From the NCBI GenBank assembly GCA_964385615.1, contig CAYLPP010000002.1:192944-256943 (forward strand): a stretch of 64,000 nucleotides of DNA, written 5' to 3'. Shown piece by piece: positions 45,116 through 64,000 of this stretch (position 1 is its first letter; the number at the start of each line of letters is the position of its first letter). The notes beneath the pieces are model-generated. The model ran no database searches. It was given only the letters and a program-made list of their open reading frames with translations, and was not told where the DNA came from. Source of the stretch: an uncultured bacterium. Its GTDB lineage: Bacteria; Omnitrophota; Omnitrophia; Omnitrophales; Aquincolibacteriaceae. The position numbers and the translations under genes were made by a program.

Positions 45116-45194
<79 letters not shown>

Positions 45195-47331: not shown

Positions 47332-47552
47332 TAATGACGGGCTAAACGTGATAACAAACACGATAGTAGCTATGTGGCCAAATAAGTGGCCAAAATCTGA
47401 CCCAGTGAGTTTGTAACTATAATCAATCATTAGAGGTGCGATTAAAAAGAAGTGGCCAAAAAAGCGGACATGGCTGCTTTCTTATGTAATCTCATACAAT
47501 CTTATATAGTTAGGTATATAAGATTCATAACCTGTTTATTTTAAATAGGTTA

Positions 47553-47623
47553 TGCATGAAAACTATATTTCATGTAACGAATTTGACATAGGAAGTCAAT
47601 TTTACGACATGAAATATAGTTTT
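47553..47623. promoter_or_regulatory. Nested palindrome upstream of hsdR: perfect 17-bp inverted repeat (47559-47575 and 47607-47623) flanking a 31-bp spacer with an inner TTGAC/GTCAA inverted repeat
   Basis: AAAACTATATTTCATGT ... ACATGAAATATAGTTTT. Three GTGGCCAAA direct repeats lie just upstream (47374, 47386, 47452). More short palindromes occur at 47497-47524. Confidence 0.45.
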
Positions 47624-47705
47624 TGCGGGGCCATTATAAATACCTTGATCTTTGAGAGCCGTCCGCTAGAATTACCTATATGATTACCCATTTAAAGGTG
47701 CGCCA

Positions 47706-50489
47706 GTGAACGAAGCTGAAACACGCAAAGAAATCATCGATCGGGAATTGTCTAAGCGCGGCTGGGATTTAAAAAATCCAAGCCAAGTCATTGTCGAATT
47801 TGAAATGGAAAGTCGATTTCCAGAAGAGAATAAAATTAAGGTACAAGCGGAAGAATATGGAACCAGTTTTTCTGGAAAAGAATTTGCGGACTATTTGCTG
47901 CTTTCCCGCGATGGTGCGACACCCTTTGCGGTAGTTGAAGCAAAACGAACCTCAAAGAATCCGCGCTTGGGTCAGCAACAGGCAGTTGGTTATGCTGAAA
48001 ATATCAAATCTAAATTCGGGGTAGATCCTTTTATCTTTTTGACCAACGGGGAATCCACTCTTTTTTGGGATCGCAGTCGTTATGCACCCCGAAAGGTTTA
48101 CGGCTTTTTCGACATTAAAGACTTAGAACGCCTGAAATATTTACGCGAACAGCAAGTTGATCCTACAATTCTTGAAATTCGCAAAGATATAGCCAGCCGC
48201 GTTTATCAGCATGAAGCCATACGCCGCACGATAGAGACATTCTCAAAAGGCCATCGCAAGGCATTAATTGTTATGGCAACGGGAACAGGAAAAACCCGCA
48301 CCGCGATGGCCTTGATTGATTTGCTCATTCGCGCTAAATGGGTTAATCATGTTTTGTTTTTAGCGGATCGCAAGATGTTGCGCGACCAAGCTTATGGAAA
48401 AAAGGGCTTTCAAGGATTCTTTACGGAGTCCATGACGAAAATCAAAAGCGGTTCGTTTGATAAGAATCAGCGCCTTTACGCCTCAACGATTCAAACACTT
48501 GAAGAAGTTTATCGGGAAATCTCGCCCGGGTTTTTCGATTTAATCATCATTGATGAATGCCATAGATCTATTTACAACAAGTGGCAGGATATCCTTTCCT
48601 ATTTTGATGCTCTTCAGGTTGGATTAACCGCAACACCGGCAGAATTTGTTGACCGGGATACTTTTCGTTTTTTCCAATGCGACGAAGGTCATCCGACTTT
48701 TAACTACACCTACGAGTCGGCCATTGAAGAAGAAATTCTAGTGCCCTTCATCCCTTATCATGCAAAGACTAACTTTCAAATTAAAGGATTGAAATCAGGG
48801 CAGATTCCAGAAGAGATCAGAAAGAAACTAGTCGAGGAAGGCAAAACAGAGGAAGAGCTAGACTTTGAAGGTACAGATTTTGAGAAGAAGTTTACGAACA
48901 AAGAAAGTTTGGAGTCCATGGTTAAGGAATTCATGGAGGTTTGTAATAAAGACGAAACCGGCTCTCTTCCAGGTAAGACCATTTATTTTGCTATTTCCAA
49001 AGAGCATGCTTACCGATTGCTCGATACTTTTGAACGACTTTACCCAGAATATAAAGGACGGCTCGCAGAAGTTATTGTTTCAGACGACAGCCGTGCGGAT
49101 GGATTCTTAACCCGATTCGAAAACGATTCTTTTCCTCGCATCGCTATCTCCGTTGATATGCTTGATACAGGGGTGGACATTCGCGAGGTGGTGAATCTGG
49201 TTTTCGCCAAGCCCGTATTTAGCAAAATCAAATTTTGGCAAATGATAGGCCGTGGAACGCGCACGATTGATTCAGAAAATGCCAAGCCTTGGTGCGCGTT
49301 TAAAGATTCATTCCTGATAATTGACCACTGGAGCAATTTTGAATATTTCAATTTAAAGCCTGAAGGCGAAATTCAAGCTCCGCAGGATTCTTTGCCTACC
49401 CGGCTCTTTCGCCTCCGTTTGCAGAAGCTGAAGCTCCAGCTGGCTTCTCAAAACCAAGAAGCTTGTGAGGCTATTAAACAAGACCTGTTAACAAGCATTC
49501 GTGCCTTGCCTCAAGATAGCGTGACCATCCTCGAAAAGAAGGAGTCTTTGACCAGAGTTTTAAGCGAGGCTTTTTGGAAGCACATTGATATTGGTTATTT
49601 AGAAAAGGAAATTGCGCCTCTCTTACGCTTTACCCAGGATGTGAATTTGAATATCTATGCATTTCTTATAAAGTGCGAGCGTTTAGAGATCGCGGCGATC
49701 AGCAAAGAAGAAAAAGCAATCAAGGAAATTGGAGAATCTATTCGTGAAGACCTGCGTTTGCTGCCGCTAAATCTCAGACAAATTCAGCAAAAAGAAGAAC
49801 AGGTTTTACGGGCTTCATCAGATCGTTTTTGGAGTTCTTTCCAGATGAATGAAGTGGGTTTTCTCAAAACAGAGATTGCGCCTTTGATGAAATGGCGCCG
49901 TGAGAGAACGCATACAGTAATTGAGTTTGATCTTAAGGATGAAATTTTAGAGCGTAAATGGATTGAGTTTGGCCCTTCCGGAGAAGGCGATTATGTTCAT
50001 CAATACAAAGAGAAAGTAGAGAAAGAAATCCGAACTTTGGCAGATCAAGATTCTGCCTTGAAAAAAATCAAAGAGGGCCACCCTGTTAGCGAAGAAGAGC
50101 TCGACCGGCTGGAAGACAAATTGAATCAGCCAGATTTATATATCAACGAGCGTAATTTGCGTGAAACCTATGGGCAGCCCACGGGAACCTTCAAACAATT
50201 CCTTCTCAAAATATTTGACAAATATGACTTCCCAAGTCGTGAGCAGCTTATTCAAAGGTCCTTTGAGACTTTTGTTCATGAGAAGCCCTGGTTTTCTGCG
50301 GATCAAATTCATTTTCTGCGTATCGTAAAAAATGTTTTCATTGAAAAATGCAAGCGTCGGGAAAAGCTTTCCGTGCATGATTTTTACGAAGGGCCTTTTG
50401 AGGCTCTCGGGCAAGACGCCGCAGATAAGCTTTTTAAGAAAAACGAGCTTGAAGAAATCGTTGAGTTTTTTAACAGTCAGGCGGCCTAG
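47706..50489 (+). CDS. hsdR: Type I restriction enzyme R subunit
   Basis: GTG start. MNEAETRKEIIDRELSKRGW is the HsdR N-terminus. Walker A ATGTGKT, DECH box, helicase C-terminal motifs; 927 aa. Confidence 0.9.
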   Translation: MNEAETRKEIIDRELSKRGWDLKNPSQVIVEFEMESRFPEENKIKVQAEEYGTSFSGKEFADYLLLSRDGATPFAVVEAKRTSKNPRLGQQQAVGYAENIKSKFGVDPFIFLTNGESTLFWDRSRYAPRKVYGFFDIKDLERLKYLREQQVDPTILEIRKDIASRVYQHEAIRRTIETFSKGHRKALIVMATGTGKTRTAMALIDLLIRAKWVNHVLFLADRKMLRDQAYGKKGFQGFFTESMTKIKSGSFDKNQRLYASTIQTLEEVYREISPGFFDLIIIDECHRSIYNKWQDILSYFDALQVGLTATPAEFVDRDTFRFFQCDEGHPTFNYTYESAIEEEILVPFIPYHAKTNFQIKGLKSGQIPEEIRKKLVEEGKTEEELDFEGTDFEKKFTNKESLESMVKEFMEVCNKDETGSLPGKTIYFAISKEHAYRLLDTFERLYPEYKGRLAEVIVSDDSRADGFLTRFENDSFPRIAISVDMLDTGVDIREVVNLVFAKPVFSKIKFWQMIGRGTRTIDSENAKPWCAFKDSFLIIDHWSNFEYFNLKPEGEIQAPQDSLPTRLFRLRLQKLKLQLASQNQEACEAIKQDLLTSIRALPQDSVTILEKKESLTRVLSEAFWKHIDIGYLEKEIAPLLRFTQDVNLNIYAFLIKCERLEIAAISKEEKAIKEIGESIREDLRLLPLNLRQIQQKEEQVLRASSDRFWSSFQMNEVGFLKTEIAPLMKWRRERTHTVIEFDLKDEILERKWIEFGPSGEGDYVHQYKEKVEKEIRTLADQDSALKKIKEGHPVSEEELDRLEDKLNQPDLYINERNLRETYGQPTGTFKQFLLKIFDKYDFPSREQLIQRSFETFVHEKPWFSADQIHFLRIVKNVFIEKCKRREKLSVHDFYEGPFEALGQDAADKLFKKNELEEIVEFFNSQAA

Positions 50490-50491
50490 CG

Positions 50492-51535
50492 ATGAAGTCA
50501 TTTAGCGAAGAATATTTTAAAAACTTATTTACGCCTCCTGAGATGCTCCCGACTTTTACTGCTTTGGGAGAATACAAGGGGAAGGAATTGCTTTTCCAAA
50601 GGCAATCCCGCGATGTTCTTGAAAAAATGGTCATGGTTGCCAAAATTGAAAGTGCGGAATCTTCCAACCGTATTGAAGGTGTCATTGTTCCTCATAAGCG
50701 TGTCGAGGCTCTTTTTAATAAAAGCATGCCTAAAAATCGCTCAGAGCAAGAAGTGGCCGGGTATCGTGACGCTCTTCAAAAAATACATGAAATGCATGAC
50801 GGTATGCCTATTTCCAATAATGTGGTACTGATGCTGCATTCCAGTCTTTATAAATATGTTACGGGTGTTAAATCCGGGGAATGGAAGCGAAGCGACAATG
50901 AAATTATTGAACATCTTCCGGATGGGAATACGAAGCTGCGCTTTAAACCTGTTTCTGCGTTTCAAACAGCGCATTACATGGAAGAGCTAGTGCGTCAGTT
51001 TAATCATGCGATGCAAAAACGGCGAATGGACCCACTCGTATTAATCCCTCTTTTTGTTTTGGATTTTCTCTGCATCCATCCATTTCTTGATGGTAATGGT
51101 CGTGTAAGTCGTCTTTTGACTTTGCTGTTGCTTTATCACGCGGGTTTCGGAGTTGGGAAATATGTCAGCTTGGAACGCTTAGTCGAAGAAAGTAAAGAAA
51201 CCTATTACGAAGCGCTTTACGATTCTTCGCAAGGTTGGCATGAAGGAAAACATAATGCGCTTCCATGGGTGCGCTATTTTTCTGGTGTGCTAACAGCAGC
51301 TTATAAAGAGTTTGAATCTCGGGTTGGTATTTTTAAAGAGTCAGGGACTAAAAGCGAGCGTTTAATCGAAATTATCAATCGTTTCGAAAATCCGTTTTCT
51401 GCCTCTGATCTTCAAAAGGCCTGCCCAGATGCGGGTATTGACCTTATCCGCAAAATCCTTAAAGACCTCCGCCGTTCTGGGGATATAGAGCCCCTGGGAC
51501 GAGGGCGCTACGCCCAATGGCGGCGAATTAGGTAA
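50492..51535 (+). CDS. Fic-family protein (canonical HPFLDGNGRVSR motif, N-terminal SxxxEG inhibitory-helix motif, C-terminal winged-helix-like tail) embedded between hsdR and hsdM
   Basis: Fic motif HPFLDGNGRVSRLL; SNRIEG lies upstream. The start is 2 nt after the hsdR stop. Confidence 0.85.
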   Translation: MKSFSEEYFKNLFTPPEMLPTFTALGEYKGKELLFQRQSRDVLEKMVMVAKIESAESSNRIEGVIVPHKRVEALFNKSMPKNRSEQEVAGYRDALQKIHEMHDGMPISNNVVLMLHSSLYKYVTGVKSGEWKRSDNEIIEHLPDGNTKLRFKPVSAFQTAHYMEELVRQFNHAMQKRRMDPLVLIPLFVLDFLCIHPFLDGNGRVSRLLTLLLLYHAGFGVGKYVSLERLVEESKETYYEALYDSSQGWHEGKHNALPWVRYFSGVLTAAYKEFESRVGIFKESGTKSERLIEIINRFENPFSASDLQKACPDAGIDLIRKILKDLRRSGDIEPLGRGRYAQWRRIR

Positions 51536-51605
51536 TAGCCTTATTTAATTAGGTAAAAATACAATAAAATACCTAATTGACAGAGGGGGCTTACCTAATT
51601 AGAAT
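51525..51605 (+). promoter_or_regulatory. Internal promoter for hsdM-hsdS (TTGACA-N17-TAGAAT) overlapped by four 9-bp AATTAGGTA / TACCTAATT boxes
   Basis: Boxes at 51525-51533 and 51547-51555 (AATTAGGTA) and at 51570-51578 and 51592-51600 (TACCTAATT). TTGACA at 51577-51582, TAGAAT at 51600-51605. AAGGAG RBS at 51661. Confidence 0.5.
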
Positions 51606-51670
51606 GCTCCTATTCTCAAGCCTGTATATGCAGGCAATTGAGAAGCGGAATCATTTCTTTAAGGAGCCCT

Positions 51671-53161
51671 ATGTTAAAACCTGAGCTAAAAAGTCAAATC
51701 GATAAACTCTGGAATCGTTTCTTCGCCGGAGGCATCGCGAACCATCTCACCGCAATTGAGCAAATTTCCTACCTTATTTTTATGAAGCGCCTTGAAGATA
51801 TGGATTATCAGCATGCTCGGGCAGCTGAAAGGCGCGGAGAAAAATATGCTTCGATTTTTAAGGGGCAAGAAAATTGCCGTTGGTCGCATTGGATTCAAAT
51901 GCCGGCTGACGAAATGTTGGCCCATGTTCGCGACAAGGTTTTTTTATTCATCAAAAATTTAAAAGGCGAAGAGAGTCTTTTTGGAACAGCGATGAAAGAT
52001 GCTGTTTTTATGATTCCCAAGCCTTCGCTTTTACAAGAAGCCGTTAAAATTATTGATGAACTTAACATCTCGCAGCAAAACCTCGATACCCAGGGCGATA
52101 TTTACGAATACCTTTTAAGCTCTCTTCAAAGCTCTGGACTCACAGGTGCTTTTAGAACGCCGCGCCACATTATTCGCATGATGGTCAAATTGGTTGATCC
52201 TAAGATTGGCGAAAGAGTTTGCGATCCAGCTGCTGGAACAGCAGGTTTTCTTGTAAATGCTTTCTTGCATATTCTTGAACAGAACACATACAAAGATTCT
52301 GTTGAGTATGACGAAGACGGAGTTCCGCATCATCTCGTCGCTGAAAAGCTTGATAAAAAGCAGCGTAACTTCTTAAAAGAAAAAGCCTTTTATGGTTTTG
52401 ATTTTGATACGACCATGGTTCGTATCGGAATTATGAATCTTATCCTGCACGGCGTTGAAAAGCCTCAATTTCAATATACAGATACGCTATCTAAGTCCTT
52501 CGAGCAGCGTGAAAAATACGATGTGATTCTGGCGAACCCACCCTTCAAAGGCTCTATTGATAAAAGCGATATTTCGGATCAATTCAAAGTGAAGTCCACG
52601 AAGACAGAGCTTCTCTTTATGGAATTATTTATACGGCTTCTAGTAACAGGTGGTCGTGCGGCAGTGATTGTTCCAGATGGTGTTCTTTTTAGTTCATCCA
52701 ACGCGCATGCTGGCGTGCGGAAAATGCTCGTGGAAGAAAACCAGCTTGAAGGCATCATCTCGATGCCTTCGGGTATATTCAAGCCCTACGCTGGGGTTTC
52801 AACCGCTATTGTCATTTTTACTAAAGGTGGCGAGACGGACAAAGTTTGGTTTTATGACATGACAGCAGATGGACTATCCTTGGATGATAAACGCCAAAAA
52901 ACCGAAGAAAATGATATCCCAGATATTGTTTCAAAATGGAAAGCGCGGGATATCAAAAAGAAGCCCTCAGCAGGAGAGAAATGGTTTTGGGTAGATGTTA
53001 AAGATATACGCAAGACTAAATATGACCTTTCGATTTCTAATTATAAAGAAATCCAATATGAAGAAGTTCAGCATGAGAATCCCGAGGAAATTTTAAATAA
53101 AATTTTACAGTTAGAACGGGAAATCCAAGAAAATGTTAGCGCTTTAAAAGGCTTCAAATGA
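51671..53161 (+). CDS. hsdM: Type I restriction-modification DNA methyltransferase M subunit
   Basis: ATG at 51671 (MLKPELKSQIDKLWNRFFAGGI) with AAGGAG 5 nt upstream. NPPF motif (LANPPFKGS). SAM-binding DPAAGTAGFL. Confidence 0.9.
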   Translation: MLKPELKSQIDKLWNRFFAGGIANHLTAIEQISYLIFMKRLEDMDYQHARAAERRGEKYASIFKGQENCRWSHWIQMPADEMLAHVRDKVFLFIKNLKGEESLFGTAMKDAVFMIPKPSLLQEAVKIIDELNISQQNLDTQGDIYEYLLSSLQSSGLTGAFRTPRHIIRMMVKLVDPKIGERVCDPAAGTAGFLVNAFLHILEQNTYKDSVEYDEDGVPHHLVAEKLDKKQRNFLKEKAFYGFDFDTTMVRIGIMNLILHGVEKPQFQYTDTLSKSFEQREKYDVILANPPFKGSIDKSDISDQFKVKSTKTELLFMELFIRLLVTGGRAAVIVPDGVLFSSSNAHAGVRKMLVEENQLEGIISMPSGIFKPYAGVSTAIVIFTKGGETDKVWFYDMTADGLSLDDKRQKTEENDIPDIVSKWKARDIKKKPSAGEKWFWVDVKDIRKTKYDLSISNYKEIQYEEVQHENPEEILNKILQLEREIQENVSALKGFK

Positions 53162-54312
53162 AAGTCAATGCTCCCATGAAGTTAGAAGAAATCTGTGAAT
53201 TCATTAATGGAGGCACGCCCCCACGTCACGTGAAGGAATATTATCATGGAACAATCCCCTGGGTTACGAGCGCTGACATTAATGATGATCAAATAAACTT
53301 TGGTCGTAACTATATTAATAAAAAATCAATTGCAGAATCTTCAACCAATTTGGTTGCACCAGGCACCGTATTGCTTGTGACTCGAACGGGTGTTGGTAAG
53401 GTCGTCATTGCTGATCGCGAACTTTGTTTTAGTCAAGATATAACCGCAATTTCACCCGACCCTAAAAAAATACGTGGCGACTATCTAGCTTATTTTTTAA
53501 AAAGCAAAATGGCCTATTTTAAAAATCATCAAAGAGGCGCGACGATTAAAGGGATAACTCGTGAAGTTGTCAGCCGATTGCAACCATTCTTGCCGGTTTT
53601 GGAAAAGCAAGAAAAAATCGTTAGTATTTTAAAAAAGACGGAATTTTCCCTTGAGGAACGCCGGGAAGCAATTGGCCTGCTCGACAATTTCCTCGAATCC
53701 ACCTTTGTGAACATGTTTAATAGAAAAGATTATCCCAAAGAAAAAATAGAGAAATTTATTATCGATACAGAAATCATCGACCCTTCAAGAAAACCTACGG
53801 ATAATTTTTTTTATGTGGATATTGAAAGCGTTGATAGTAAGGAGGGTGTCATCAAGGGGGCGAAGGAGCTAACAGGCGCAGAGGCGCCCAGTCGGGCAAG
53901 AAAACGAATAAAAAAAGAAGATGTCTTAGTTTCTACGGTGCGCCCCAACTTGAACGCAACCGCTCTTGTTCCTGAAAATTTGGATAACCAAGTGTGCTCA
54001 ACGGGTTTTGCAGTGTTGAGATGTTCCGGTGATCTTCGCCCGGCTTATTTGTATATGTGCACCCGCTTGAATTTTTTTATCGCGCAATTAGTCGCAAAGA
54101 CAAAAGGGGCATCTTACCCGGCCGTCTCCAATCAAGATGTTCTTGATACGAAAATCCCTTTTCCTCCAATTGAAGAGCAGAAAAAATTCGAAGCTATTTT
54201 TTTGAAGGTTCAGCAGATTAAACGGAAAATGAGATCTTCGGAAGCCGAGCTTCAAAACCTTTTCAATTGCCTGATGCAAAAAGCCTTTAAGGGAGAGCTA
54301 TTCAATGCCTAA
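53158..54312 (+). CDS. hsdS: Type I restriction-modification specificity subunit
   Basis: ATGA overlap with hsdM. Two target-recognition domains separated by conserved helical repeats (LPVLEKQEKIVSIL / FPPIEEQKKFEAIF). Confidence 0.85.
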   Translation: MKVNAPMKLEEICEFINGGTPPRHVKEYYHGTIPWVTSADINDDQINFGRNYINKKSIAESSTNLVAPGTVLLVTRTGVGKVVIADRELCFSQDITAISPDPKKIRGDYLAYFLKSKMAYFKNHQRGATIKGITREVVSRLQPFLPVLEKQEKIVSILKKTEFSLEERREAIGLLDNFLESTFVNMFNRKDYPKEKIEKFIIDTEIIDPSRKPTDNFFYVDIESVDSKEGVIKGAKELTGAEAPSRARKRIKKEDVLVSTVRPNLNATALVPENLDNQVCSTGFAVLRCSGDLRPAYLYMCTRLNFFIAQLVAKTKGASYPAVSNQDVLDTKIPFPPIEEQKKFEAIFLKVQQIKRKMRSSEAELQNLFNCLMQKAFKGELFNA

Positions 54313-55183
54313 ACGAAAGCGGTCTCAGAAAAGGCATAGACGGCCTCGGGCCAAGAAGAAAGTTTTACGCAGATCTGGCCTTTCAGTTGTTCAAAGGCAA
54401 AACATTAGATTGTTGGCTGAACAAATTGGTCGATTGATTCCATGGTCCAGCTTTGGCGGTAAGCTCACACTAACGTCATTGGCTAAGAAACGAGGATTGA
54501 AGAAATTTTTACCAAAGAAAACGTCTTCCAAGAAGGACGGAACGGTGCATTTCCTTGAACTTTTATTGGTAAATAAGCCGCGGGTTTTAAAGAAGCTGAT
54601 TCGGGAAATTCTCCCGCTTGCCGTTGAACGTCGGCACGCCCAGGGAGATCCGCTTCTTTCGCAGGAGGCTGGGGTTCTTTCTGATCGGTTGCTTTTACTT
54701 GGAGTTAATCTAAAAAAAGAAATAAAAGAAATGAATCTTCCGGTGGCGTGGCCACGTGTCGTTCCGCCTTCCGTCGAAATCCAGCAGACTTTAAGCAAGC
54801 TCCCATTACATTCCTTGTTGTTACCCGAATGCAGAGATTTATTCCTCAAAGGTCACATCAACGAATCGGTTAGGAAGGCTGCTGAAAAATTTGAAGTCCG
54901 TGTCCAAGGCTTGAGCGGGATTGCTGACAAGATCGGTAGAGACTTAATGGCAAACGCATTCTCGGAAACAAATCCAAAGATAAAGCTTAACGGCTTGACC
55001 ACAGCTAATGAGAAGAACGAGCAGGAAGGTTTTAAGCTGATTTCTATGGGCGTGATGGCTTGGTGGAGAAACACCACTAGTCATGGTGATGAGCCTCAAA
55101 TGGCTCCCCAGGACGGCCTTTCCCGTTTGCTAACAATCAGCAACTTGTTGCATATTTTGGACGAGCGAACAAAGCCCGCTTAA
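54305..55183 (+). CDS. Protein with highly basic N-terminal region and C-terminal TIGR02391/Hypoth_Ymh-like domain
   Basis: The start overlaps the hsdS stop by 8 nt. The N-terminal 40 aa are very basic (KRKRSQKRHRRPRAKKK). C-terminal motifs ECRDLFLKGHINESVRKAAEKFEVRVQ, GRDLMANAFS and WWRNTTSHG match my recollection of the Hypoth_Ymh family, which is often found in restriction-modification or Abi loci. Confidence 0.6.
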   Translation: MPKRKRSQKRHRRPRAKKKVLRRSGLSVVQRQNIRLLAEQIGRLIPWSSFGGKLTLTSLAKKRGLKKFLPKKTSSKKDGTVHFLELLLVNKPRVLKKLIREILPLAVERRHAQGDPLLSQEAGVLSDRLLLLGVNLKKEIKEMNLPVAWPRVVPPSVEIQQTLSKLPLHSLLLPECRDLFLKGHINESVRKAAEKFEVRVQGLSGIADKIGRDLMANAFSETNPKIKLNGLTTANEKNEQEGFKLISMGVMAWWRNTTSHGDEPQMAPQDGLSRLLTISNLLHILDERTKPA

Positions 55184-55187
55184 AAAT

Positions 55188-55934
55188 ATGGATGAAATAA
55201 CCAATAAACTTTTAGCTGGCGATATAATCATTACCAGTCAAAATAAGTTTTCTTTCTCAACTTCTCTTTTTATTCGCTTTGGAAATTTTTCAAAGTATGG
55301 ATTTTCTCGTCGCGGGTGGACTCATGCGGCTTTGTATGTCGGCGATGGTGAAGTTGTAGAAGCTTTTCCCACGGGAATTGTTAAGCGCAGTTTAAAAGAC
55401 GCTTACCTGAATGGAGACTACCGCATAAGTGTTTTGCGAAGAAAGGGTGGGGCATCGCAAAGCCTTGGCCAAGCGGTTGAGTTTTGCAAGAGCAAGGTAG
55501 GTAAAACCTATGATCAAAAGGCGCTTATTTATTATGTGATCGTTCAAATTCTGCCGCCTATTCTTCAGTTTCTTTTAAACACAAAAGCGGTAGATCAATG
55601 GTTAAATAATAAGGACGCTTTTTACTGTTCGGAGCTTGTTGCCCAAAGTCTTTTAGAAGCGAACACCTATTGTTTTGATCGAGCGCCTGACCGGATTATG
55701 CCGGTCGATTTATACAGTAACGAGTACTGCTTTGAGCGCATTCTTGAACTGCCGGCCCCAAAGCAGAATTTCATCAAGAAAGCAGCGATCTGCTTGGGAT
55801 ACACCATTGCAATATTGATTTGGTTGGTTCTTAGCGCAATCATAGTTTTTGTTGCGGTTCAGCTTGTTATTCGTGCTTTAGCTGCAACAAAAAATCAGCA
55901 AAAAGATGCTAGTTCTGACGAAGCTAAAAAATAA
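55188..55934 (+). CDS. Permuted papain-fold (NlpC/P60-superfamily, YiiX/C92-like) putative amidase with C-terminal transmembrane anchor
   Basis: His block WTHAALYVGDGEVVEA precedes Cys block AFYCSELVAQ (permuted order). The C-terminal hydrophobic helix is ILIWLVLSAIIVFVAVQLVI. The start lies 4 nt after the upstream stop. Confidence 0.55.
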   Translation: MDEITNKLLAGDIIITSQNKFSFSTSLFIRFGNFSKYGFSRRGWTHAALYVGDGEVVEAFPTGIVKRSLKDAYLNGDYRISVLRRKGGASQSLGQAVEFCKSKVGKTYDQKALIYYVIVQILPPILQFLLNTKAVDQWLNNKDAFYCSELVAQSLLEANTYCFDRAPDRIMPVDLYSNEYCFERILELPAPKQNFIKKAAICLGYTIAILIWLVLSAIIVFVAVQLVIRALAATKNQQKDASSDEAKK

Positions 55935-55951
55935 ATGTTTTGAGAGGTTTA

Positions 55952-56764
55952 ATGACTAAAGAAATTATTCGAAAATTAATCGGTGTGGAAGTTCGGTTGG
56001 GATTTCTTTATATCCCAGCGAATGCGATTGAGTGGATGCCGCCGCAAAGTGGAAAAATCATGGTGGCTATGCCAGACGGTTTGAATTCCCTTACATATAA
56101 CGTCGATTACAAACGAATTTTTGGTTTAACAAAGTGGTATAAAAAATTCGATTCGAAGGTTGGAGACGAGGTTGTTTTAGAAAAGACCGGCTCTAACTAC
56201 TCAATTAAGTTTCGTCCGAAGAAGCAGCCTGTCGAATCGGAACAAGAAGCTGAAAATCTTATCGATATATCCGGCCTTTCATCTCAGGCAAAAGGAAATA
56301 TTGTTGAAGACCGCATAAAAGAATTGATTGTTTTGCAGGGACAAGGCATTTTGAATGTTTATCGTCCGGTCACCGATAATCATGGCATTGATTTGATCGT
56401 CACAAAAATTGGAAATTTTCACCCGATATTTCTCCAGGTAAAAAGCCGGTTTAATGTCCAGAAAGCCGGCTATTTCCTCATGGATATCTCCAAAAAAACT
56501 TTTAAATCGCACCCTTCTTTTTTTGTGTTAGGGGCTTACTTTAACCCTCAAAAATTAGAAGTGCATGACAGTTTATTGCTGGTGCCGAGCGTTGAGATTG
56601 AGAAGCTTAAGTCATTTGAAACGAAAAACGGACCTCGCTATCGTGTGATGAATTACTTGAATCCGGAATCTCAAGGTAAATGGGCGAAATATTTGATTAA
56701 AAAAACAGACTTGGCCAATCAGCTGCTTGAGCGGTTTGAAGAAATGGAAAAGTTTTTACGGTAA
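55952..56764 (+). CDS. Putative nuclease: N-terminal B3-like pseudobarrel-type DNA-binding region plus C-terminal PD-(D/E)xK-like motif
   Basis: ATG at 55952 with GAGAGG RBS. GLTKWYKKFDSKVGDEVVLEK resembles the B3/EcoRII-N pattern (GW..F....L..GD.V.F). HGIDLIVTK...IFLQVKSR gives D...QxK spacing typical of PD-(D/E)xK. The call is tentative. Confidence 0.5.
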   Translation: MTKEIIRKLIGVEVRLGFLYIPANAIEWMPPQSGKIMVAMPDGLNSLTYNVDYKRIFGLTKWYKKFDSKVGDEVVLEKTGSNYSIKFRPKKQPVESEQEAENLIDISGLSSQAKGNIVEDRIKELIVLQGQGILNVYRPVTDNHGIDLIVTKIGNFHPIFLQVKSRFNVQKAGYFLMDISKKTFKSHPSFFVLGAYFNPQKLEVHDSLLLVPSVEIEKLKSFETKNGPRYRVMNYLNPESQGKWAKYLIKKTDLANQLLERFEEMEKFLR

Positions 56765-56779
56765 GGCGGAAAATTTACG

Positions 56780-56801
56780 ACGGGCAATAGCCCGTTTTTT
56801 T
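56780..56801 (+). terminator. Rho-independent terminator ending the hsdM-hsdS-three-gene transcription unit
   Basis: ACGGGC-aata-GCCCGT followed by TTTTTTT. Confidence 0.55.
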
Positions 56802-56841
56802 GTCTTTAATTAACAGTAGTGTTTTAGAAAGTGGATTGAAT

Positions 56842-57756
56842 ATGCTCAAAACAACAATAAAAGGCTCTGATTTTTTGGCGTCCTTTAGTCAGTTAATTAA
56901 GGGCGCTTATCTTGATAAGAGCAATAAAACGAAGTTGGATTTGTTTGTTCTTAATTTAGATTCAAATGAATTCGACTATGAAACATTTAAAAGACGATTG
57001 ATTGATCCAGTGATTGATTTTTCTCTTTCGCGAAAAATTAAGCAACAGTACAAAACGCAGCCCGGTACTCAATCTAAAACAGCGCGGGAAAAGTTTAAAC
57101 ATTATATGGAGAATACTGGAGAGCTGGGAGAGTTCCTCCTATTCTGTTTTTTGGAGACTCACCTGAATGCACCCAAAATTCTCACAAAGATGGAAATAAA
57201 AACATCTACTAGTCACTACACACACGGGTCTGACGGAGTCCATTTTCTTGAGCTAGCGGATGGGAATTTCCATTTAATTTTCGGAGAATCAAAAACAGAA
57301 AAAAGGTTATCTAAATCTATAGCGAATGCCATTCAGTCGATTCATGATTTTAAGAATTCTATTAACGCTAAAGGCAAGAAAAAAAGCGGCATGGCTTATG
57401 AAAAGTCATTAATTTCCAGCGAAATCTTAAAAGAGACATTTTCGAAAAAAGAAAAAGATTTTATCGAAGCTATGATTTACCCGAAAGCATCGAATGACTT
57501 TGACGTTGATACCGCATTTGGTATTTTTCTTGGATATCAAATGAGTATAAATATCGCCGATAAGAAGCTCTCCAATGAAGAGTGCCGGAAAAAGATTTAT
57601 GCCAAAATAGAAAAACAAGTGACAAAATCCTTTAAGACGATAATGAAGAAAATTGATGAAAAGGGTTTAGCAGGACACCACTTTTATATTTATATTTTGC
57701 CGTTTACAGATTTGGTCAAAACACGAAAAGATATAACAGAACACATCTCCTCATGA
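56842..57756 (+). CDS. hamA: Hachiman HamA-like protein (DUF1837-type PD-(D/E)xK nuclease-like)
   Basis: The ORF track gives a TTG at 56800 inside the terminator T-run; ATG at 56842 (MLKTTIKGSD) is preferred. The motif GSDGVHFLEL...LIFGESK has D...ExK spacing. The size (about 300 aa) and pairing with a downstream SF2 helicase via ATGA overlap fit Hachiman. Confidence 0.6.
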   Translation: MLKTTIKGSDFLASFSQLIKGAYLDKSNKTKLDLFVLNLDSNEFDYETFKRRLIDPVIDFSLSRKIKQQYKTQPGTQSKTAREKFKHYMENTGELGEFLLFCFLETHLNAPKILTKMEIKTSTSHYTHGSDGVHFLELADGNFHLIFGESKTEKRLSKSIANAIQSIHDFKNSINAKGKKKSGMAYEKSLISSEILKETFSKKEKDFIEAMIYPKASNDFDVDTAFGIFLGYQMSINIADKKLSNEECRKKIYAKIEKQVTKSFKTIMKKIDEKGLAGHHFYIYILPFTDLVKTRKDITEHISS

Positions 57757-60311
57757 CGAACAAGTCTCTCGCGGATGAATTAACGGAAAAGATTTTTAAA
57801 GACACTTATTTTATTAAACTAATAAGTAAAGCGGAAGCTATAGCAGCGGATAACTTCTTTGGAATTAATCAGAACCAACAACAATTAAATGAAAAAGAAG
57901 TTTTAGGCTTGTTAAGATTTGCTGATATTTTATCTCACTCAAGCAAGCCTCAGGCTAGAAATCTTGCCTATAAAATCATCAGTACTTTGGCAGAGCAGAA
58001 AGTTGATAGCGCTGATTTTAGCATTTTTGCTACAGCAGTTTTATCCAAACTTGGAAATTTTCCGGCTTTAAAGTATTTTTCAGATAACTTTAAACATAAA
58101 CAAATCCTTCCCTTCGAGAGAGAGCTTGAAAAAATTCTTAAAGAGGAAATTCAAAAGGTGCCCTTTGAAGAAAATATATTTACAGATGCCCAATATGCGA
58201 TATTTGAACAGTTAAAGAATAATAATCATTACAGTTTCTCGGGGCCGACCTCTTTAGGTAAGTCATTCATAATCGAAGCCTTTGTAAAATATCTAGTTTC
58301 GCGTAGTGGGGTTAATGAAAATATAATTATTCTAGTTCCCACACGAGCGCTTATTAATCAAGTGTCGCTGAAGTTGAAAAACAGTTTGAAAAATGAAGGA
58401 AGCTACAAGGTTTTAACGCATCCGATCGTCCCTGAGTTTTTTAAGAGAAATGCTCAAGGTTTTGTCTTTGTTTTTACACCGGAACGGCTAATTCTTTTCC
58501 TCTCGAACTACAATAATCCTAAGGTTGAATATTTATTCGTTGATGAGGCTCAAAAAGTAATTTCGGAACGAGATACTAGAAGTCCACTTTATTATCACTC
58601 TATTTTGCAGGCTGAAAGGAAGTCCATTAAGCTTTTCTTTTCTTCTCCGAATATTCCTAATCCAGAAGTGTTTCTTCAAGTTTTTGAAAAGAGCACAGAT
58701 GAAGTTGTTTCTGTAATTGATTCGCCGGTTTCTCAGAACCGATACTTTCTGGATTTAATAGAGAGAAAGGTGCTCTTTTTTCCAGACATGGATAAAGAGA
58801 GACAAATCGATATTACTATCGACAACGATAAGATTTTTTATTGGTTAAAGAGACTTGGTGAAGGACAAAAAAACATTGTCTATTGCAACACCATAGAAGA
58901 CACGATTAATTACGCACGTGACTTTTCTTCCGAGTTACCAAATAAATCAAGCTCAAAATTAGACGAATTGATTAATTTAATCAAAGCCTCATTACATAAA
59001 GACTATTTTCTCATCGATTGTTTGAAAAAGGGGGTGGCGTTCCATTTTGGGAAACTACCGCAAAGAATCCGTTTGAAACTTGAAGAATTGTTTCGTGATA
59101 AGGTTATAGATTGGGTTTTTTGCACCTCGACTTTATTAGAGGGTGTAAATTTGCCTGCAAAAAACATCTTTATATTAAGCAATGCCATTGGGGCTTCAAA
59201 ATTTACAGATATTGATTTTTGGAATTTAGCGGGACGCGCTGGCCGATTATCAAAAGATCTGTCAGGTAATATTATTTGTTTGAGAGGTATAGAAAAGGAT
59301 GGACGTTGGGATAATCCAGAAAAAGACCTAGAAGTGGTGCGCAATAAAGAGGTTAGTCCTTTACAGCCCTTGATCATAAAAGGGCAAAAAAGTTTCTTCA
59401 AAAACATCGAGAACTCCTTATTACAACAGAATTTTACAAGAAAAAATGCTTCACAGCCTGAGAAGGATATATGGAACTCTTATGCAAACATAACTGTTAT
59501 TCATGAGCTTCGAAAAGATGAGTCGGTTTTAAGAGCCAACTTTATAGAAAGAAATGCTGGGGGCAGAGAGCTTTTGAAGAAGCTTGTTAAGCAGAACAAA
59601 GTGCCTGAAAAAATACTAACAGCTTCTTCCTCCATAAAAGTAAGGATACAAAATGAAGTTTATGAAAAATTGAATGATAAAGATGCTTTACCTCAGCCAG
59701 TAGGCTACGACACAATTCTATCGGTGTTGGAAAGTCTTTGTGTTAAATACGATTGGGAAAATGAAGAATCTGGTGGAAGAAATCCTATGATCAAGAAAGG
59801 AAGAGGAGTACTAAAGTACTACGCTACATTGATGAATGAATGGATGCAATCTTCCCCTCTAAATCAAATGGTTCGTATTGCAATTAAGTATTACGATGAA
59901 CGTGGAGAGATATGGCTTAATAACCATATCAAAGAAACATTCGATCGAAATAATCGGACACATATTAATGCGATTATTAATGATTTAATCGGCGACATTG
60001 ATAATGTTTTAAGATTTAAACTCGAAAAATATTTCAATAATTACTTTTTATTAATACGGCATAAATTCGGTGAAAAGAAAGCTGGGGCCAATTGGGCAGA
60101 ATATCTAGAGTATGGAACTACGGATAAAAAAATTATTGAACTTCAAAATATTGGTTTTTCACGGCATTTAGCTAAATATATTCTAGACAATCATGAAGAT
60201 TGTGTTTCCTTTAATGATGAAGGCGTTTTAGAAAAAATAGATAGCGAAAAACTATTACTGACTTTTGATAAGACTACAGATGAATACAAAGAATATGAAG
60301 AGGTAGTTTGA
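57753..60311 (+). CDS. hamB: Hachiman HamB-like SF2 (DExH/DEAD-type) helicase
   Basis: 852 aa. Walker A GPTSLGKS, motif II VDEAQ, motif VI NLAGRAGR, long C-terminal extension. Start overlaps the hamA stop. Confidence 0.7.
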   Translation: MTNKSLADELTEKIFKDTYFIKLISKAEAIAADNFFGINQNQQQLNEKEVLGLLRFADILSHSSKPQARNLAYKIISTLAEQKVDSADFSIFATAVLSKLGNFPALKYFSDNFKHKQILPFERELEKILKEEIQKVPFEENIFTDAQYAIFEQLKNNNHYSFSGPTSLGKSFIIEAFVKYLVSRSGVNENIIILVPTRALINQVSLKLKNSLKNEGSYKVLTHPIVPEFFKRNAQGFVFVFTPERLILFLSNYNNPKVEYLFVDEAQKVISERDTRSPLYYHSILQAERKSIKLFFSSPNIPNPEVFLQVFEKSTDEVVSVIDSPVSQNRYFLDLIERKVLFFPDMDKERQIDITIDNDKIFYWLKRLGEGQKNIVYCNTIEDTINYARDFSSELPNKSSSKLDELINLIKASLHKDYFLIDCLKKGVAFHFGKLPQRIRLKLEELFRDKVIDWVFCTSTLLEGVNLPAKNIFILSNAIGASKFTDIDFWNLAGRAGRLSKDLSGNIICLRGIEKDGRWDNPEKDLEVVRNKEVSPLQPLIIKGQKSFFKNIENSLLQQNFTRKNASQPEKDIWNSYANITVIHELRKDESVLRANFIERNAGGRELLKKLVKQNKVPEKILTASSSIKVRIQNEVYEKLNDKDALPQPVGYDTILSVLESLCVKYDWENEESGGRNPMIKKGRGVLKYYATLMNEWMQSSPLNQMVRIAIKYYDERGEIWLNNHIKETFDRNNRTHINAIINDLIGDIDNVLRFKLEKYFNNYFLLIRHKFGEKKAGANWAEYLEYGTTDKKIIELQNIGFSRHLAKYILDNHEDCVSFNDEGVLEKIDSEKLLLTFDKTTDEYKEYEEVV

Positions 60312-60600
60312 TAAATATAGAAGATTTTCCGCACAGTGTGTGGAAAATCATGAGATCAAGTTAAGCCCGGAAGGCTAGGTGGGCTTTACATACTTGGTTG
60401 CATTGCTTTTAATTACCCAGGTTTTAATTTTAGGTGTTACTAAAAAATGATTTTTATAATCAGAGAGATAATCTGATACGATCTTTTGACCTTAAATTTT
60501 GGCGGGTGGTGCGGGCGGCGGCGAAAAATGCAGCCGGGAAACAACGAAAAACATCAGCAGAAAGCAGCAGCAAACTAAAACAAAAATTTGTGCTGAAATT

Positions 60601-60620
60601 TTGGGAACAAATTGGGAACA
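60601..60620 (+). repeat. Second TTGGGAACA-N2-TTGGGAACA doublet (candidate arm-type sites, attR side)
   Basis: TTGGGAACAaaTTGGGAACA has the same box and 11-bp register as 45253..45272, 119 bp inside attR. Confidence 0.45.
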
Positions 60621-60738
60621 AAACAGGCAGAAAAGCCGTCAAAAACGAAAAACCAGCATTAAAAACTTTCACACTTAAATCATGCTCACAGAAATAGTTA
60701 TAAAAAATAATCAAAAATCAGAAAAATCGTTTCGACCC

Positions 60739-60785
60739 CTCATAACCCAAAGGTCCCAGGTTCAAATCCTGGCCCCGCTACCAAT
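60739..60785 (+). repeat. attR core: 47-bp copy of the tRNA-fMet 3' end (not a complete tRNA)
   Basis: Exact match to 45148..45194; the upstream sequence does not continue the tRNA. Confidence 0.9.
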
Positions 60786-60798
60786 CGCAAGTGAAGAA

Positions 60799-60829
60799 GC
60801 CATCGGGTTTTAAACCCGGTGGCTTTTTT
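60799..60829 (+). terminator. Rho-independent terminator, probably the ancestral tRNA-fMet terminator now separated from the gene by the island
   Basis: GCCATCGGGTT-tta-AACCCGGTGGC followed by TTTTTT, 14 bp after the attR core. Confidence 0.55.
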
Positions 60830-60858
60830 GCTCTTCAGGCCTGAGAATACCCGGTCAA

Positions 60859-62286
60859 ATGCTCTTCAACTCACTGCCTTTTCTTGTTTTTTTCCTGATT
60901 GTCATCCTGGTTTATCAATTACCGATGACTTGGCCGATGAAGAAACTTTTTCTGCTGGCCGTCAGTTATTTCTTTTACGCTTCCTGGAATCCGCCGTTTG
61001 TCATTCTTCTCTGGTTTTCCACGGTGGTGGACTGGTTCGCGGCCAAGGGGCTCTATGCCGCGCGGGGGAAAACGGCCCGGCGCCTTCTGCTTATCGCCAG
61101 CCTCGCGGTCAATCTGGGCATGCTTGGGTTTTTTAAATACGGCAATTTCATTCTGGATAACATTTCATTTCTTTCGCAGGTTTTTCATTTTTCATATTCA
61201 CGCCCGCATTTTGACATCCTCCTTCCGGTCGGCATTTCTTTTTACACTTTTCAGACCTTGTCCTACACGCTTGATGTTTACTTCGGGCGCAGAGCCCCGG
61301 CGGATTCCTTCCTGGATTACGCGCTCTACATTGCTTTTTTCCCTCAGCTGGTGGCGGGGCCGATTGTGCGTTCTGAGGATTTTATTCCTCAGTGCGCGGT
61401 GGAGCCCAAACCGACCCGCTCTCAATTTCACACGGGGCTGTCGCTGATGGTGCTGGGGCTTTTTGAGAAAGTAGTCATTGCTGATTTTTTAATGGCGCCG
61501 GTGAGCGAGCGGATTTTTAACGCGCCTTCGGTGCCGGGATTTATGGACTGCTGGCTTGGAACCCTGGCTTTTTATGTTCAGATTTTCTGCGATTTCGCGG
61601 GTTACTCCACTTGCGCTATCGGAACGGCTCTTTGCTTTGGATTCGCGCTGACCCGCAATTTTCATTTCCCGATGGGGGCTGTCGGATTTTCAGATTTCTG
61701 GAGACGCTGGCACATTTCACTTTCCACCTGGCTGAGGGATTATCTTTATATCCCTCTCGGCGGAAACCGCAAAGGCCGGGCGCGCACCTATTTTAACCTG
61801 ATGCTGACCATGCTGATCGGCGGGCTGTGGCACGGGGCTTCCTGGACTTTTGTGGTCTGGGGCGGACTGCATGGAATCTTTTTATGCGCGGAACGTTTTT
61901 TGAAAGGCCTCGCGGGGCATTGGGCTTTGTGGAAACAAGGCTGGACGCGTTTGGTGTTCGGGGCCGTGACTTATCTGGGCGTTTCGATTGCCTGGGTTTT
62001 CTTCCGCTCCCGGAGTTTTCCCCAGGCTTTGGACATGATCCGCGCGATGGTCTCCATCCCTTCAAATTTTCAATCTTCCGGTCTGCTGATTCCCGCGCAG
62101 GAAAAAATAGTTTGGGTTACCGCCGGTGTTTTGCTTATGATACACACGGTTTTTCGCGGTCAAACGTTGAAGCGTATCGCCGTGCGCGTTCCCTGGTGGA
62201 TGCGAGGCGTAGCGCTGGCCGGCATGGTCCTGCTGATTCTGACCTCCAGCGGTGACGACCGGGCTTTCATTTATTTTCAATTTTAA
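60859..62286 (+). CDS. MBOAT-family membrane-bound O-acyltransferase (AlgI/DltB/PatA-like)
   Basis: 475 aa, polytopic, with the conserved His in the WHGASWTFVVWG region and an MBOAT signature. Confidence 0.85.
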   Translation: MLFNSLPFLVFFLIVILVYQLPMTWPMKKLFLLAVSYFFYASWNPPFVILLWFSTVVDWFAAKGLYAARGKTARRLLLIASLAVNLGMLGFFKYGNFILDNISFLSQVFHFSYSRPHFDILLPVGISFYTFQTLSYTLDVYFGRRAPADSFLDYALYIAFFPQLVAGPIVRSEDFIPQCAVEPKPTRSQFHTGLSLMVLGLFEKVVIADFLMAPVSERIFNAPSVPGFMDCWLGTLAFYVQIFCDFAGYSTCAIGTALCFGFALTRNFHFPMGAVGFSDFWRRWHISLSTWLRDYLYIPLGGNRKGRARTYFNLMLTMLIGGLWHGASWTFVVWGGLHGIFLCAERFLKGLAGHWALWKQGWTRLVFGAVTYLGVSIAWVFFRSRSFPQALDMIRAMVSIPSNFQSSGLLIPAQEKIVWVTAGVLLMIHTVFRGQTLKRIAVRVPWWMRGVALAGMVLLILTSSGDDRAFIYFQF

Positions 62287-62298
62287 TCCAAGGAAAAA

Positions 62299-63483
62299 AT
62301 GCCCTCTACTGCCTCGAAGAAAAAGTACAGCATCCTGCCGACTGTTTTATTTCTTTTAGGCGTTCTCGCCGTGGGGGAACTGGCCTGCCGGGGGCTGGAC
62401 GTTTATGACGGTTACAAACGCTACCACCGCCTTCTGGGTGAAACGGCTGTTTACCGTGATCAGGTCTACAGTATTTCCAAGCCGAAAGGCGTGAAGCGGG
62501 TGCTTTTGCTGGGGGGATCCGCGGCGCATGACACGGTAAAAAATTATCAGGAGTCCTGGCCCTACCTTTTAGAGCAAAAACTCAAAAAGTCAGCGGGTGA
62601 AAAAATCGAGCTCATTAACATGGCTTTTTATTCAGAGTCATCCATTGACGAACTTTTCAAATTGAATCAATTCGGGCTCGACATGATGCCCGACCTTGTC
62701 ATTGTTTTTGACGGTTCCAACGACGTTTACAATCTTTACCGCCAGCACGATTACTGGAAAAAACTTTACGAAGAAAAAGACAAACCGATTCTTTTTGAGA
62801 AGAAGCACCATTTTTTAACCAAGTTCGCCGGGTCCATCCGCAAGAAAAGCTCGCTTTATCAGCATCTGAATCTTTGGAAACGCAGTGTCACTCTGGCATT
62901 AACCGATTGGGCTGAAGGCATGAGAAAACAGCCGTCTTCACCCGCTGTCTCTCAGGCTCCCGCGCCGGAGTCCGGAACTCCGCAGGCGAGCGCGCCCGCT
63001 CCCGCCTCCGCGCCAGCTGAAACGGCCGGGCCCAGCTTTGATCAGTTTTTTGAGGATGAATCCAGATGGCCGGTTATTCAGGAAGACTATGTTGAAATTT
63101 ACGGGTCCAATCTGGAAAAGATGGCGAAGCTGATCCGCAAGACCGGCGCGAAAGGTCTTTTTATTTTTCAGCCCGATCTTTCTTACAAACCGGTTCTGAC
63201 GGATCAAGTCAGCGCGGGGGAAACCGCTGAGTATTTGAAAATTATCGGAAAGCATGATGAAGCCTGCAGAAAAATTCTGGCTCAAGCCTTCCCGAAGGGG
63301 ATTGAGCTCATGCGTAAAACCGCCGAAACGTACGGGCTTGTGTTTTATGATTTTAATCCGAAGATTCTTCTGGGCGGTGATGTGCAGGACCTCTTTGAGG
63401 GGAATGTACACTTCTCCGAAAAAGGCCGGGAACGTATTTCTGATGAGCTGGCCTCGATTATTCTTGAGAAAAAATTGATCTGA
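62299..63483 (+). CDS. Membrane-anchored SGNH-like protein paired with MBOAT (AlgJ/AlgX/PatB-like O-acetyltransferase partner), with Pro/Ala-rich linker
   Basis: N-terminal TM; LLLGGSAAHD block; low-complexity linker QAPAPESGTPQASAPAPASAPAE; lies directly downstream of the MBOAT gene. Confidence 0.55.
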   Translation: MPSTASKKKYSILPTVLFLLGVLAVGELACRGLDVYDGYKRYHRLLGETAVYRDQVYSISKPKGVKRVLLLGGSAAHDTVKNYQESWPYLLEQKLKKSAGEKIELINMAFYSESSIDELFKLNQFGLDMMPDLVIVFDGSNDVYNLYRQHDYWKKLYEEKDKPILFEKKHHFLTKFAGSIRKKSSLYQHLNLWKRSVTLALTDWAEGMRKQPSSPAVSQAPAPESGTPQASAPAPASAPAETAGPSFDQFFEDESRWPVIQEDYVEIYGSNLEKMAKLIRKTGAKGLFIFQPDLSYKPVLTDQVSAGETAEYLKIIGKHDEACRKILAQAFPKGIELMRKTAETYGLVFYDFNPKILLGGDVQDLFEGNVHFSEKGRERISDELASIILEKKLI

Positions 63484-63540
63484 AAAGGCTGAATTAAGAA
63501 ATTCGCGGGCAGGCCGATGGATTAAGCATCAGGAGGCGCC

Positions 63541-63738
63541 ATGAAAAAACTCAAGAAACTCTCAACGAGTAAAGTGACGATCTTCAAGATTAAGAACCGC
63601 CGGGGATTCGCGGCCGTTTCGCTGAATAATCTGACGGAAGGAAATACGCCGGTTCAGGCTTTCAACCGTATGGCCAAAGCGGTCAAGCGGTTGGGTTATG
63701 AATTCAGCGGTACTGTGCCTCGCCCGAAATCCCTCTGA
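63541..63738 (+). CDS. Small basic hypothetical protein (65 aa)
   Basis: AGGAGG RBS 6 nt upstream of the ATG; followed by a clear terminator. Confidence 0.5.
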   Translation: MKKLKKLSTSKVTIFKIKNRRGFAAVSLNNLTEGNTPVQAFNRMAKAVKRLGYEFSGTVPRPKSL

Positions 63739-63764
63739 TTTAAACTCGTTCTCAATGAAAAAAA

Positions 63765-63791
63765 GCCGGTCCATTTGGGGCCGGCTTTTTT
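63765..63791 (+). terminator. Rho-independent terminator
   Basis: GCCGGTCC-atttg-GGGCCGGC followed by TTTTTTATTTT. Confidence 0.6.
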
Positions 63792-63891
63792 ATTTTGAAC
63801 AAGATCAGGATTTAGCTCGAGTCTACAAAAACGTAGGTTTTTAAGCCCTGCTAACGGCTTCCTCTATTAAGTTCCCCGCTAGGGCCTATAT

Positions 63892-63907
63892 TGGCATAGA
63901 ATCTGCT
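63892..63907 (+). promoter_or_regulatory. Possible sigma-54 (-24/-12) promoter TGGCAT-N5-CTGCT
   Basis: GG and GC elements are spaced exactly as in TGGCACG-N4-TTGC; ATG at 63921. Confidence 0.25.
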
Positions 63908-63920
63908 TGGTACCCCCGAG

Positions 63921-64000
63921 ATGAACTTCCTCCAATATAAGACAGATAACTTTTATGATGAGCTTTTCACGGACGACGCGCTCGCCCGTGATCTGGCCAA
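63921..64000 (+). CDS. 5' end of a gene (MNFLQYKTDNFYDELFTDDALARDLA...) running off the window
   Basis: Open frame from the ATG at 63921 to the window end. Weak RBS. Identity unknown. Confidence 0.3.
   Translation, partial: MNFLQYKTDNFYDELFTDDALARDLA

Follow-up and report, generated by a model that had tools for sequence, protein, structure and literature searches.

A type I Hachiman gene pair at the distal end of a tRNA-Met defence island in an uncultured Omnitrophota bacterium

Hachiman systems of type I-A have been characterised from the E. coli strains ECOR31 (PDB 8VX9/8VXA/8VXY; PMC12278908) and DEC14B (PMC11914072). Each consists of two genes with hamA first; HamA has a DUF1837 domain only, with an intact D...ExK motif, and HamB is a Ski2/Hel308-like superfamily 2 (SF2) helicase. 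Here we describe a gene pair of the same design in a 64,000-nucleotide stretch of DNA from an uncultured bacterium of the Omnitrophota (GenBank assembly GCA_964385615.1, contig CAYLPP010000002.1, positions 192,944 to 256,943), which we refer to as the window. We read the pair, with a probability of roughly 0.93, as an intact type I Hachiman system of subtype I-A that was brought in as a self-contained cassette of two genes and sits at the distal end of a defence island integrated at a tRNA-Met gene.

HamAB is a heterodimer in which HamB holds back HamA on intact double-stranded DNA (Tuck et al. 2024, PMC12278908). The DEC14B type I-A proteins must be in complex to degrade diverse DNAs, and this activity needs both E150/K152 and the Walker A motif (Cui et al., PMC11914072); HamAB of S. 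thermophilus shows the same dependence, and its cleavage is stimulated by ATP binding (Tian et al., PMC13064477). Mutation of the E-x-K pair abolishes defence in both E. coli systems (E138A/K140A in ECOR31, PMC12278908; E150A/K152A in DEC14B, PMC11914072), and the residues essential in S. thermophilus HamA are D90-E93-D127-E147-K149 (PMC13064477). AbpAB (YfjL/YfjK), a type I-B Hachiman system (PDB 8ZUE) on the E. coli K-12 prophage CP4-57, is likewise made up of a helicase and a DUF1837 protein whose genes overlap and lie on a mobile element, but in AbpA a Cap4-type nuclease at the N-terminus is joined to an inactive DUF1837, whereas the window HamA has no such extra domain. A further HamAB pair has been solved as PDB 9WH1/9WHK/9WHU; a literature text search for 9WH1 returned only unrelated matches and no publication.

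The hamAB genes and their products

The coordinates and motifs of the pair were taken from an open reading frame (ORF) listing and from direct reading of the sequence, and are as follows.

56842..57756, + strand: hamA, ATG at 56842 and TGA at 57754-57756, 304 residues, DUF1837 domain alone
57753..60311, + strand: hamB, ATG start, 852 residues, Ski2/Hel308-like SF2 helicase
57753..57756, + strand: ATGA, shared by the hamA stop and the hamB start, by direct sequence reading
57232-57234, 57286-57288 and 57292-57294, + strand: putative catalytic residues D131, E149 and K151 of HamA, of PD-(D/E)xK nuclease type
HamB residues F143-Q147: Q motif
58242-58265, + strand: HamB motif I, GPTSLGKS, residues G164-S171
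HamB residues 242-245: TPER
58542-58553, + strand: HamB motif II, DEAQ, residues 264-267
HamB residues 297-300: SSPN
HamB residues 458-469: motif V, TSTLLEGVNLPA, with TSTLLEGVN from 458
59229-59246, + strand: HamB motif VI, AGRAGR, residues 493-498

The first-pass annotation, made from the sequence alone, had proposed a Hachiman architecture for the two genes, a protein of about 300 residues with a D...ExK motif joined by an ATGA overlap to an 852-residue SF2 helicase with GxxxxGKS, DEAQ and AGRAGR motifs. All of these elements are present: the first protein has 304 residues and contains D131 and E149-S-K151, bases 57753-57756 read ATGA, and the three helicase motifs were located. The genes are adjacent and co-oriented, as in type I Hachiman operons, and the ATGA overlap would couple their translation. 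An alternative TTG start for hamA at 56800 was rejected; it falls inside the T-run of the upstream terminator, and it finds no support among the homologues, which are 302-305 residues long and whose alignments begin at residue 1-2 counted from the ATG at 56842.

Membership of both proteins in the Hachiman families is clear from profile searches. HamA matches the PADLOC model HamA1 PDLC00156 with an E-value of 7.5e-108 over profile positions 7-296 of 298 (HamA residues 7-302), 20 further PADLOC HamA models match it behind this one, and Pfam PF08878 (HamA, formerly DUF1837) gives 183.4 bits against a cut-off of 25, so that the likeness to DUF1837 first suggested stands. HamB matches the PADLOC model HamB1 PDLC00176 with 1072.9 bits over profile positions 2-843 of 845 and contains the Pfam domains DEAD, Helicase_C and ResIII. 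Both proteins are thus matched from end to end by the PADLOC models, and the best models are the HamA1 and HamB1 sets, which are those of type I. With hidden Markov model E-values of 7.5e-108 for HamA and 0 for HamB, the hamAB gene content is far beyond chance.

The putative catalytic residues of HamA are preceded by a conserved motif, G93-E-L-G-E97. Across 25 HamA homologues of 52-71% identity, G93, E94, G96, E97, E105, H107, K112, D131, H134, E149 and K151 are invariant, and the putative catalytic residues are also invariant in an alignment of 21 sequences. The spacing of E94-E97-D131-E149-K151 is 3, 34, 18 and 2, as compared with 3, 34, 20 and 2 for D90-E93-D127-E147-K149 of S. thermophilus HamA (PMC13064477); judged from spacing alone, the two sets of residues would correspond. 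A structure prediction for HamA was of moderate quality, with a predicted local distance difference test (pLDDT) of 67.6 and a predicted template modelling score (pTM) of 0.71. Searched with Foldseek, this model had exactly three significant PDB matches (8VXY_A, 8VX9_A and 8ZUE_A), all of them HamA chains and all with probability 1.00, and the restriction endonuclease EcoO109I and Cap4 came next, below significance.

Among 18 HamB sequences, 142 positions are invariant, and these include every SF2 motif (Q, I, Ia, Ib, II, III, V and VI). The nearest solved chain by sequence is 9WH1_B (E 3.7e-120, full length; 34.9% identity on re-alignment), followed by E. coli K-12 AbpB (8ZUE_B, E 1.9e-21, related in the core motifs) and ECOR31 HamB (8VX9_B, E 6e-11), and after the HamB chains come the Ski2-like helicases SLH1, ASCC3, Hel308, Brr2, PolQ and Mtr4. 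The AlphaFold2 model of HamB (pLDDT 87.6, pTM 0.87) has ECOR31 HamB (8VXA_A) as its top fold match, with a query-normalised TM-score of 0.68, and behind it Hel308, Hjm, the PolQ helicase, 8ZUE_B and Brr2. By sequence and by fold the helicase therefore groups with HamB and with Ski2, Hel308, PolQ and Brr2, and not with UvrD or RecQ, the helicase families that the first-pass annotation had set against a Hachiman assignment; no RecQ or UvrD NCBIfam model is matched by HamB, and no UvrD or RecQ chain is among the HamB sequence or fold matches listed.

The ECOR31 structures are the top fold matches for both window proteins, at about 10-12% identity for HamA and 14-15% for HamB in structural alignment. 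Among solved or characterised HamB proteins, only the 9WH1 helicase is homologous to the window helicase over its full length, and at 853 as against 852 residues it aligns from end to end and is the closest solved helicase. The DUF1837 domain of the 9WH1 HamA, however, has no D, E or K in the alignment columns of D131, E149 and K151, which in the window HamA are intact.

Relatives of the cassette and signals at its borders

Relatives were sought with a scan that took one genome per species, which gave 20 loci with HamB relatives at 40-61% identity; no HamB relative above 61% identity was found among these representative genomes. The hosts include Candidatus Moraniibacteriota, Flavobacteriia, Gammaproteobacteria, Alphaproteobacteria, Campylobacterota, Bacteroidota, Clostridia, Candidatus Dojkabacteria and archaea of the Thermoplasmatales. 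The gene pairing is conserved: hamB is directly preceded by the gene for a HamA homologue in each of the 18 related loci where this could be judged, and the identical 4-bp overlap occurs in 12 of these 18. Searched as DNA for distant matches, the hamB core had none in 5,426 complete genomes of E. coli, and in a protein search of plasmids the relatives reached at most 36% identity.

The closest relative of all is on a metagenomic contig (from SRR33375179; locus L021 in our numbering), where both proteins have the same lengths as in the window, the same 4-bp overlap and 70% amino acid identity. A locus in a Candidatus Moraniibacteriota metagenome-assembled genome (L001) likewise keeps the lengths and the overlap, at 60-61% identity for both proteins. 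At both loci the flanking genes differ from those of the window and homology stops at the cassette borders. DNA similarity between the window and L021 is confined to 56839-60315, from the hamA start to the hamB stop, and because it ends at these borders we take the two-gene hamAB cassette to be the unit that moves. The terminator upstream of hamA and the hairpin downstream of hamB do not travel with the cassette.

Three hairpins are relevant to transcription of the pair.

56779..56803, + strand: intrinsic-terminator-like hairpin followed by seven Ts, with a 7-bp stem (56779-56796), 5 G-C pairs and a 4-nt loop
60323..60349, + strand: 12-pair 3' stem-loop (one pair is G.U) closed by a 3-nt loop, -14.7 kcal/mol, not followed by a T-run
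60790..60832, + strand: 20-bp hairpin with a T-run, just outside attR, -33.3 kcal/mol for 60786-60860

The upstream hairpin lies 15 nt past the stop codon of the preceding gene (which ends at 56764) and 38 nt before the hamA ATG, and RNAfold gives -16.6 kcal/mol for the region 56765-56812. The initial annotation had the pair following a terminator, which the 7-bp stem and its seven Ts bear out, and from this had concluded that hamAB is its own transcription unit; that part is an inference only, and a sigma-70 promoter scan of the 38 nt between the T-run and the hamA ATG gave no match, although it used the sigma-70 consensus only, which may not be the promoter type of the host. A promoter picked by eye before hamA, TTGTCT-17-TTTAGA with an upstream TG, was weak and unconvincing. 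The genes from 47706 to 60311 are all co-directional, with tiny gaps from 47706 onward, and read-through from upstream genes into hamAB is a live alternative.

The 3' stem-loop begins 12 nt past the hamB stop codon. Its lack of a T-run had been described correctly, but the stem has 12 pairs and not the 13 bp proposed, since a thirteenth would leave a 1-nt loop. Without a T-run it is not a canonical terminator, and its role is uncertain; it could be a 3' stabiliser of the mRNA or a weak terminator. Such hairpins are not rare in themselves: those of at least 12 pairs number 12 distinct in the window, or 19 records when several loop sizes are counted, as compared with 3-9 records in each of ten Markov shuffles, and it is only the position directly after the hamB stop codon that makes this one noteworthy, which is suggestive. 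No counterpart is present downstream of hamB in L021. The first canonical + strand terminator downstream of hamB is the hairpin at 60790-60832, which probably terminated the tRNA gene originally.

Subtype, proposed mechanism and alternative readings

We assign the system to type I and not to type II because no DUF3223 (HamC) gene lies nearby, none having been found in the neighbouring ORFs from 45886 to 63483 by Pfam and/or PADLOC scanning. HamA has no N-terminal fusion, its profile match over residues 7-302 of 304 leaving no room for another domain, and it keeps the catalytic residues, which places it in subtype I-A (Cui et al. 2025); the assignment is made from HamA domain content and residues. 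Subtype I-A is the majority class, with 86.4% of HamA representatives (Cui et al., PMC11914072), and the window pair is a canonical member of it, an ordinary new addition to a well-studied family. The exact HamA and HamB proteins are already in NCBI, recorded once and nameless in the protein collection that we searched, and the result matters little beyond annotation in that these proteins can now be called HamA and HamB.

By analogy with the characterised homologues, HamA and HamB would be made in roughly equal amounts from their overlapping genes and would form a heterodimer with ATP-dependent nuclease activity (PMC12278908, PMC11914072, PMC13064477). HamB would restrain HamA while the complex scans intact double-stranded DNA. 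Phage infection would then give rise to aberrant DNA, for example free 3' single-stranded ends, on which HamB would load and hydrolyse ATP, and HamA, once activated, would degrade phage and host DNA indiscriminately, so that the infection is aborted and the cell lost. Acting in this way, the window HamAB would be expected to confer phage resistance. The mechanism is the best-supported one since every residue found essential in those studies has a conserved counterpart here.

Several points count against this reading. Every experimentally characterised Hachiman system is distant from the window pair: ECOR31 HamB is detected by phmmer only over residues 389-508 (E 6e-11), and at 1174 residues it is 322 longer than the window HamB, with about 300 residues that have no counterpart; K-12 AbpB is only 24-29% identical to the window HamB, and over motif blocks only; and BLASTP of the window HamA against K-12 AbpA found no pairwise similarity. 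The 9WH1 partner HamA, with 528 residues and an extra N-terminal region, is unlike the short HamA of the window. The structure prediction for HamA reached only a moderate pLDDT of 67.6, its TM-scores to the solved HamA chains are 0.40-0.49, and the missing sigma-70 match before hamA counts in the same direction. As all characterised systems are distant, and as the HamA that partners 9WH1_B has a dead DUF1837, mechanistic details such as the trigger or the DNA-end preference may differ here.

It is conceivable, although we think it unlikely, that the window system belongs to an uncharacterised Hachiman clade, in which a HamB of about 850 residues works with a catalytically intact HamA of about 300, and that it might differ in trigger or regulation. 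If the residues absent relative to ECOR31 HamB include the OB or winged-helix elements that sense 3' single-stranded DNA, then a different DNA trigger is possible, for instance double-stranded DNA, which is the trigger reported for type I-B, and regulation of HamA might differ too. The widespread clade with a HamB of about 850 residues has no characterised representative, which is the only, and modest, scientific opening that this locus offers; a system from this clade could reasonably be chosen to be compared biochemically with those of ECOR31 and K-12.

The pair might also be Hachiman by descent but silent in this host, passenger DNA that is insulated by the upstream terminator, has no promoter of its own and is non-functional in practice. 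This would fit the terminator-like hairpin and seven Ts immediately upstream, the absence of a sigma-70-type match in the 38-nt gap, and a G+C fraction of 0.35 against 0.52 in the host, which points to recent acquisition and poor codon adaptation. Decay would be the expected fate of a silent gene, however, and both ORFs are intact, of full family length and with all catalytic residues kept; in addition, the promoter scan was limited to the sigma-70 consensus while the host promoter type may differ, and transcripts could enter from the co-directional genes upstream. We therefore regard a silent cassette as very unlikely.

Two other readings concern what the proteins are, and to both we give next to no credence. 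After the Hachiman chains, HamB is most closely related to the DNA-repair helicases Hel308, Hjm and PolQ, as would be expected if the pair were a housekeeping helicase-nuclease module for DNA repair (Hel308/RecQ-like) and not a defence system. Yet the NCBIfam Hel308 equivalog scores 43.4 bits against its cut-off of 1200 and the HamB models are best by a wide margin, the partner is a DUF1837/HamA protein, the pair sits on an integrase-bearing island beside restriction-modification genes, and its patchy spread across phyla is typical of defence genes that move horizontally. Alternatively, the system could be a variant like AbpAB (type I-B/C/D) in which DUF1837 is a scaffold only and another effector domain kills, and here it is relevant that the closest solved HamB, 9WH1_B, pairs with an N-terminally extended HamA whose DUF1837 is catalytically dead. 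The window HamA has no space for another domain, its D131, E149 and K151 are present and invariant, and it shows no pairwise similarity to AbpA; the domain architecture already contradicts this reading.

The tRNA-Met island around the pair

The island spans about 15.6 kb (45116-60785), and hamAB is its last cargo. The pair had been placed at the distal end of an island from the outset, and this agrees with the position of attR, 428 nt past the hamB stop codon. The features of the island other than hamAB are given below.

45116..45194, + strand: tRNA-Met (CAT) as attL context, the tRNA gene itself being 45116-45192; its 3' part is attL, at the proximal end
45886-46158, + strand: AlpA/excisionase-like helix-turn-helix ORF
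46171-47331, + strand: tyrosine integrase
47706-50489, + strand: hsdR
50492-51535, + strand: SoFic-like Fic gene (PADLOC SoFic E 2.3e-37; Pfam Fic)
51638-53161, + strand: hsdM
53158-54312, + strand: hsdS
54305-55183, + strand: Hypoth_Ymh/TIGR02391 HEPN-like gene with a very basic N-terminus; weak PADLOC matches to PD-Lambda-3_B (1.1e-11) and Aga_HEPN
55188-55934, + strand: C92/YaeF-type permuted papain peptidase gene, the product having a transmembrane helix at its C-terminus
55940-56764, + strand: weak PD-(D/E)xK gene, 274 residues; PD-(D/E)xK_5 is sub-threshold at 21.5 bits, cut-off 26.1
60739..60785, + strand: attR, 47-bp exact copy of the tRNA-Met 3' part 45148-45194

The att repeat (45148-45194 and 60739-60785) consists of the 3' 45 nt of tRNA-Met and two further bases. 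The locus gives a clear picture of a tRNA-Met defence island, with an integrase, a type I restriction-modification system with its SoFic-like gene, three unassigned genes and Hachiman, the last acquired as a discrete cassette of lower G+C. The G+C fraction rises from 0.35 in hamAB to about 0.42 across the remaining island cargo and about 0.52 in the flanking DNA, and these steps fit a mosaic island that received the Hachiman cassette in a separate event. The integrase end of the island is at a host-like value of about 0.51, with the cargo at 0.35-0.44. An MBOAT protein encoded in the flanking DNA has homologues in scattered taxa.

Type I restriction-modification genes stand beside HamAB relatives in 5 of 21 related loci (L017, L013, L012, L004 and L002), which suggests that the two kinds of system are recurrently paired in defence islands. 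The hsdR and hsdM of L017 share 40-47% identity with their window counterparts. In the window operon, the Fic-domain gene is inserted between hsdR and hsdM. The three genes at 54305-56764 were considered as part of the Hachiman system and rejected, as homologues of none of them accompany HamAB in any of the 21 related loci; they may be separate, undescribed defence genes.

Between the hamB hairpin and attR lie about 390 nt (60350-60738) that are AT-rich and apparently non-coding, the sole ORF there being a low-complexity one of 87 residues at 60434-60697 with no PADLOC match. An Rfam search over 44000-64000 found no RNA family except tRNA, and the 3' hairpin and this spacer were unmatched. On the L021 contig, 155 nt past the hamB stop codon (11637-11653), there is a 17-nt fragment, CTCATAACCCAAAGGTC, that equals the first 17 nt of the window att repeat, in the tRNA-Met anticodon arm (chance expectation about 2e-6). 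The L021 locus has no tRNA gene, and the fragment may be a relic of a similar integration at tRNA-Met. At the proximal end of the window island, a second strong hairpin with a T-run (45201-45234, 15-bp stem) is island-borne and stands directly after the tRNA-Met reconstituted at attL.

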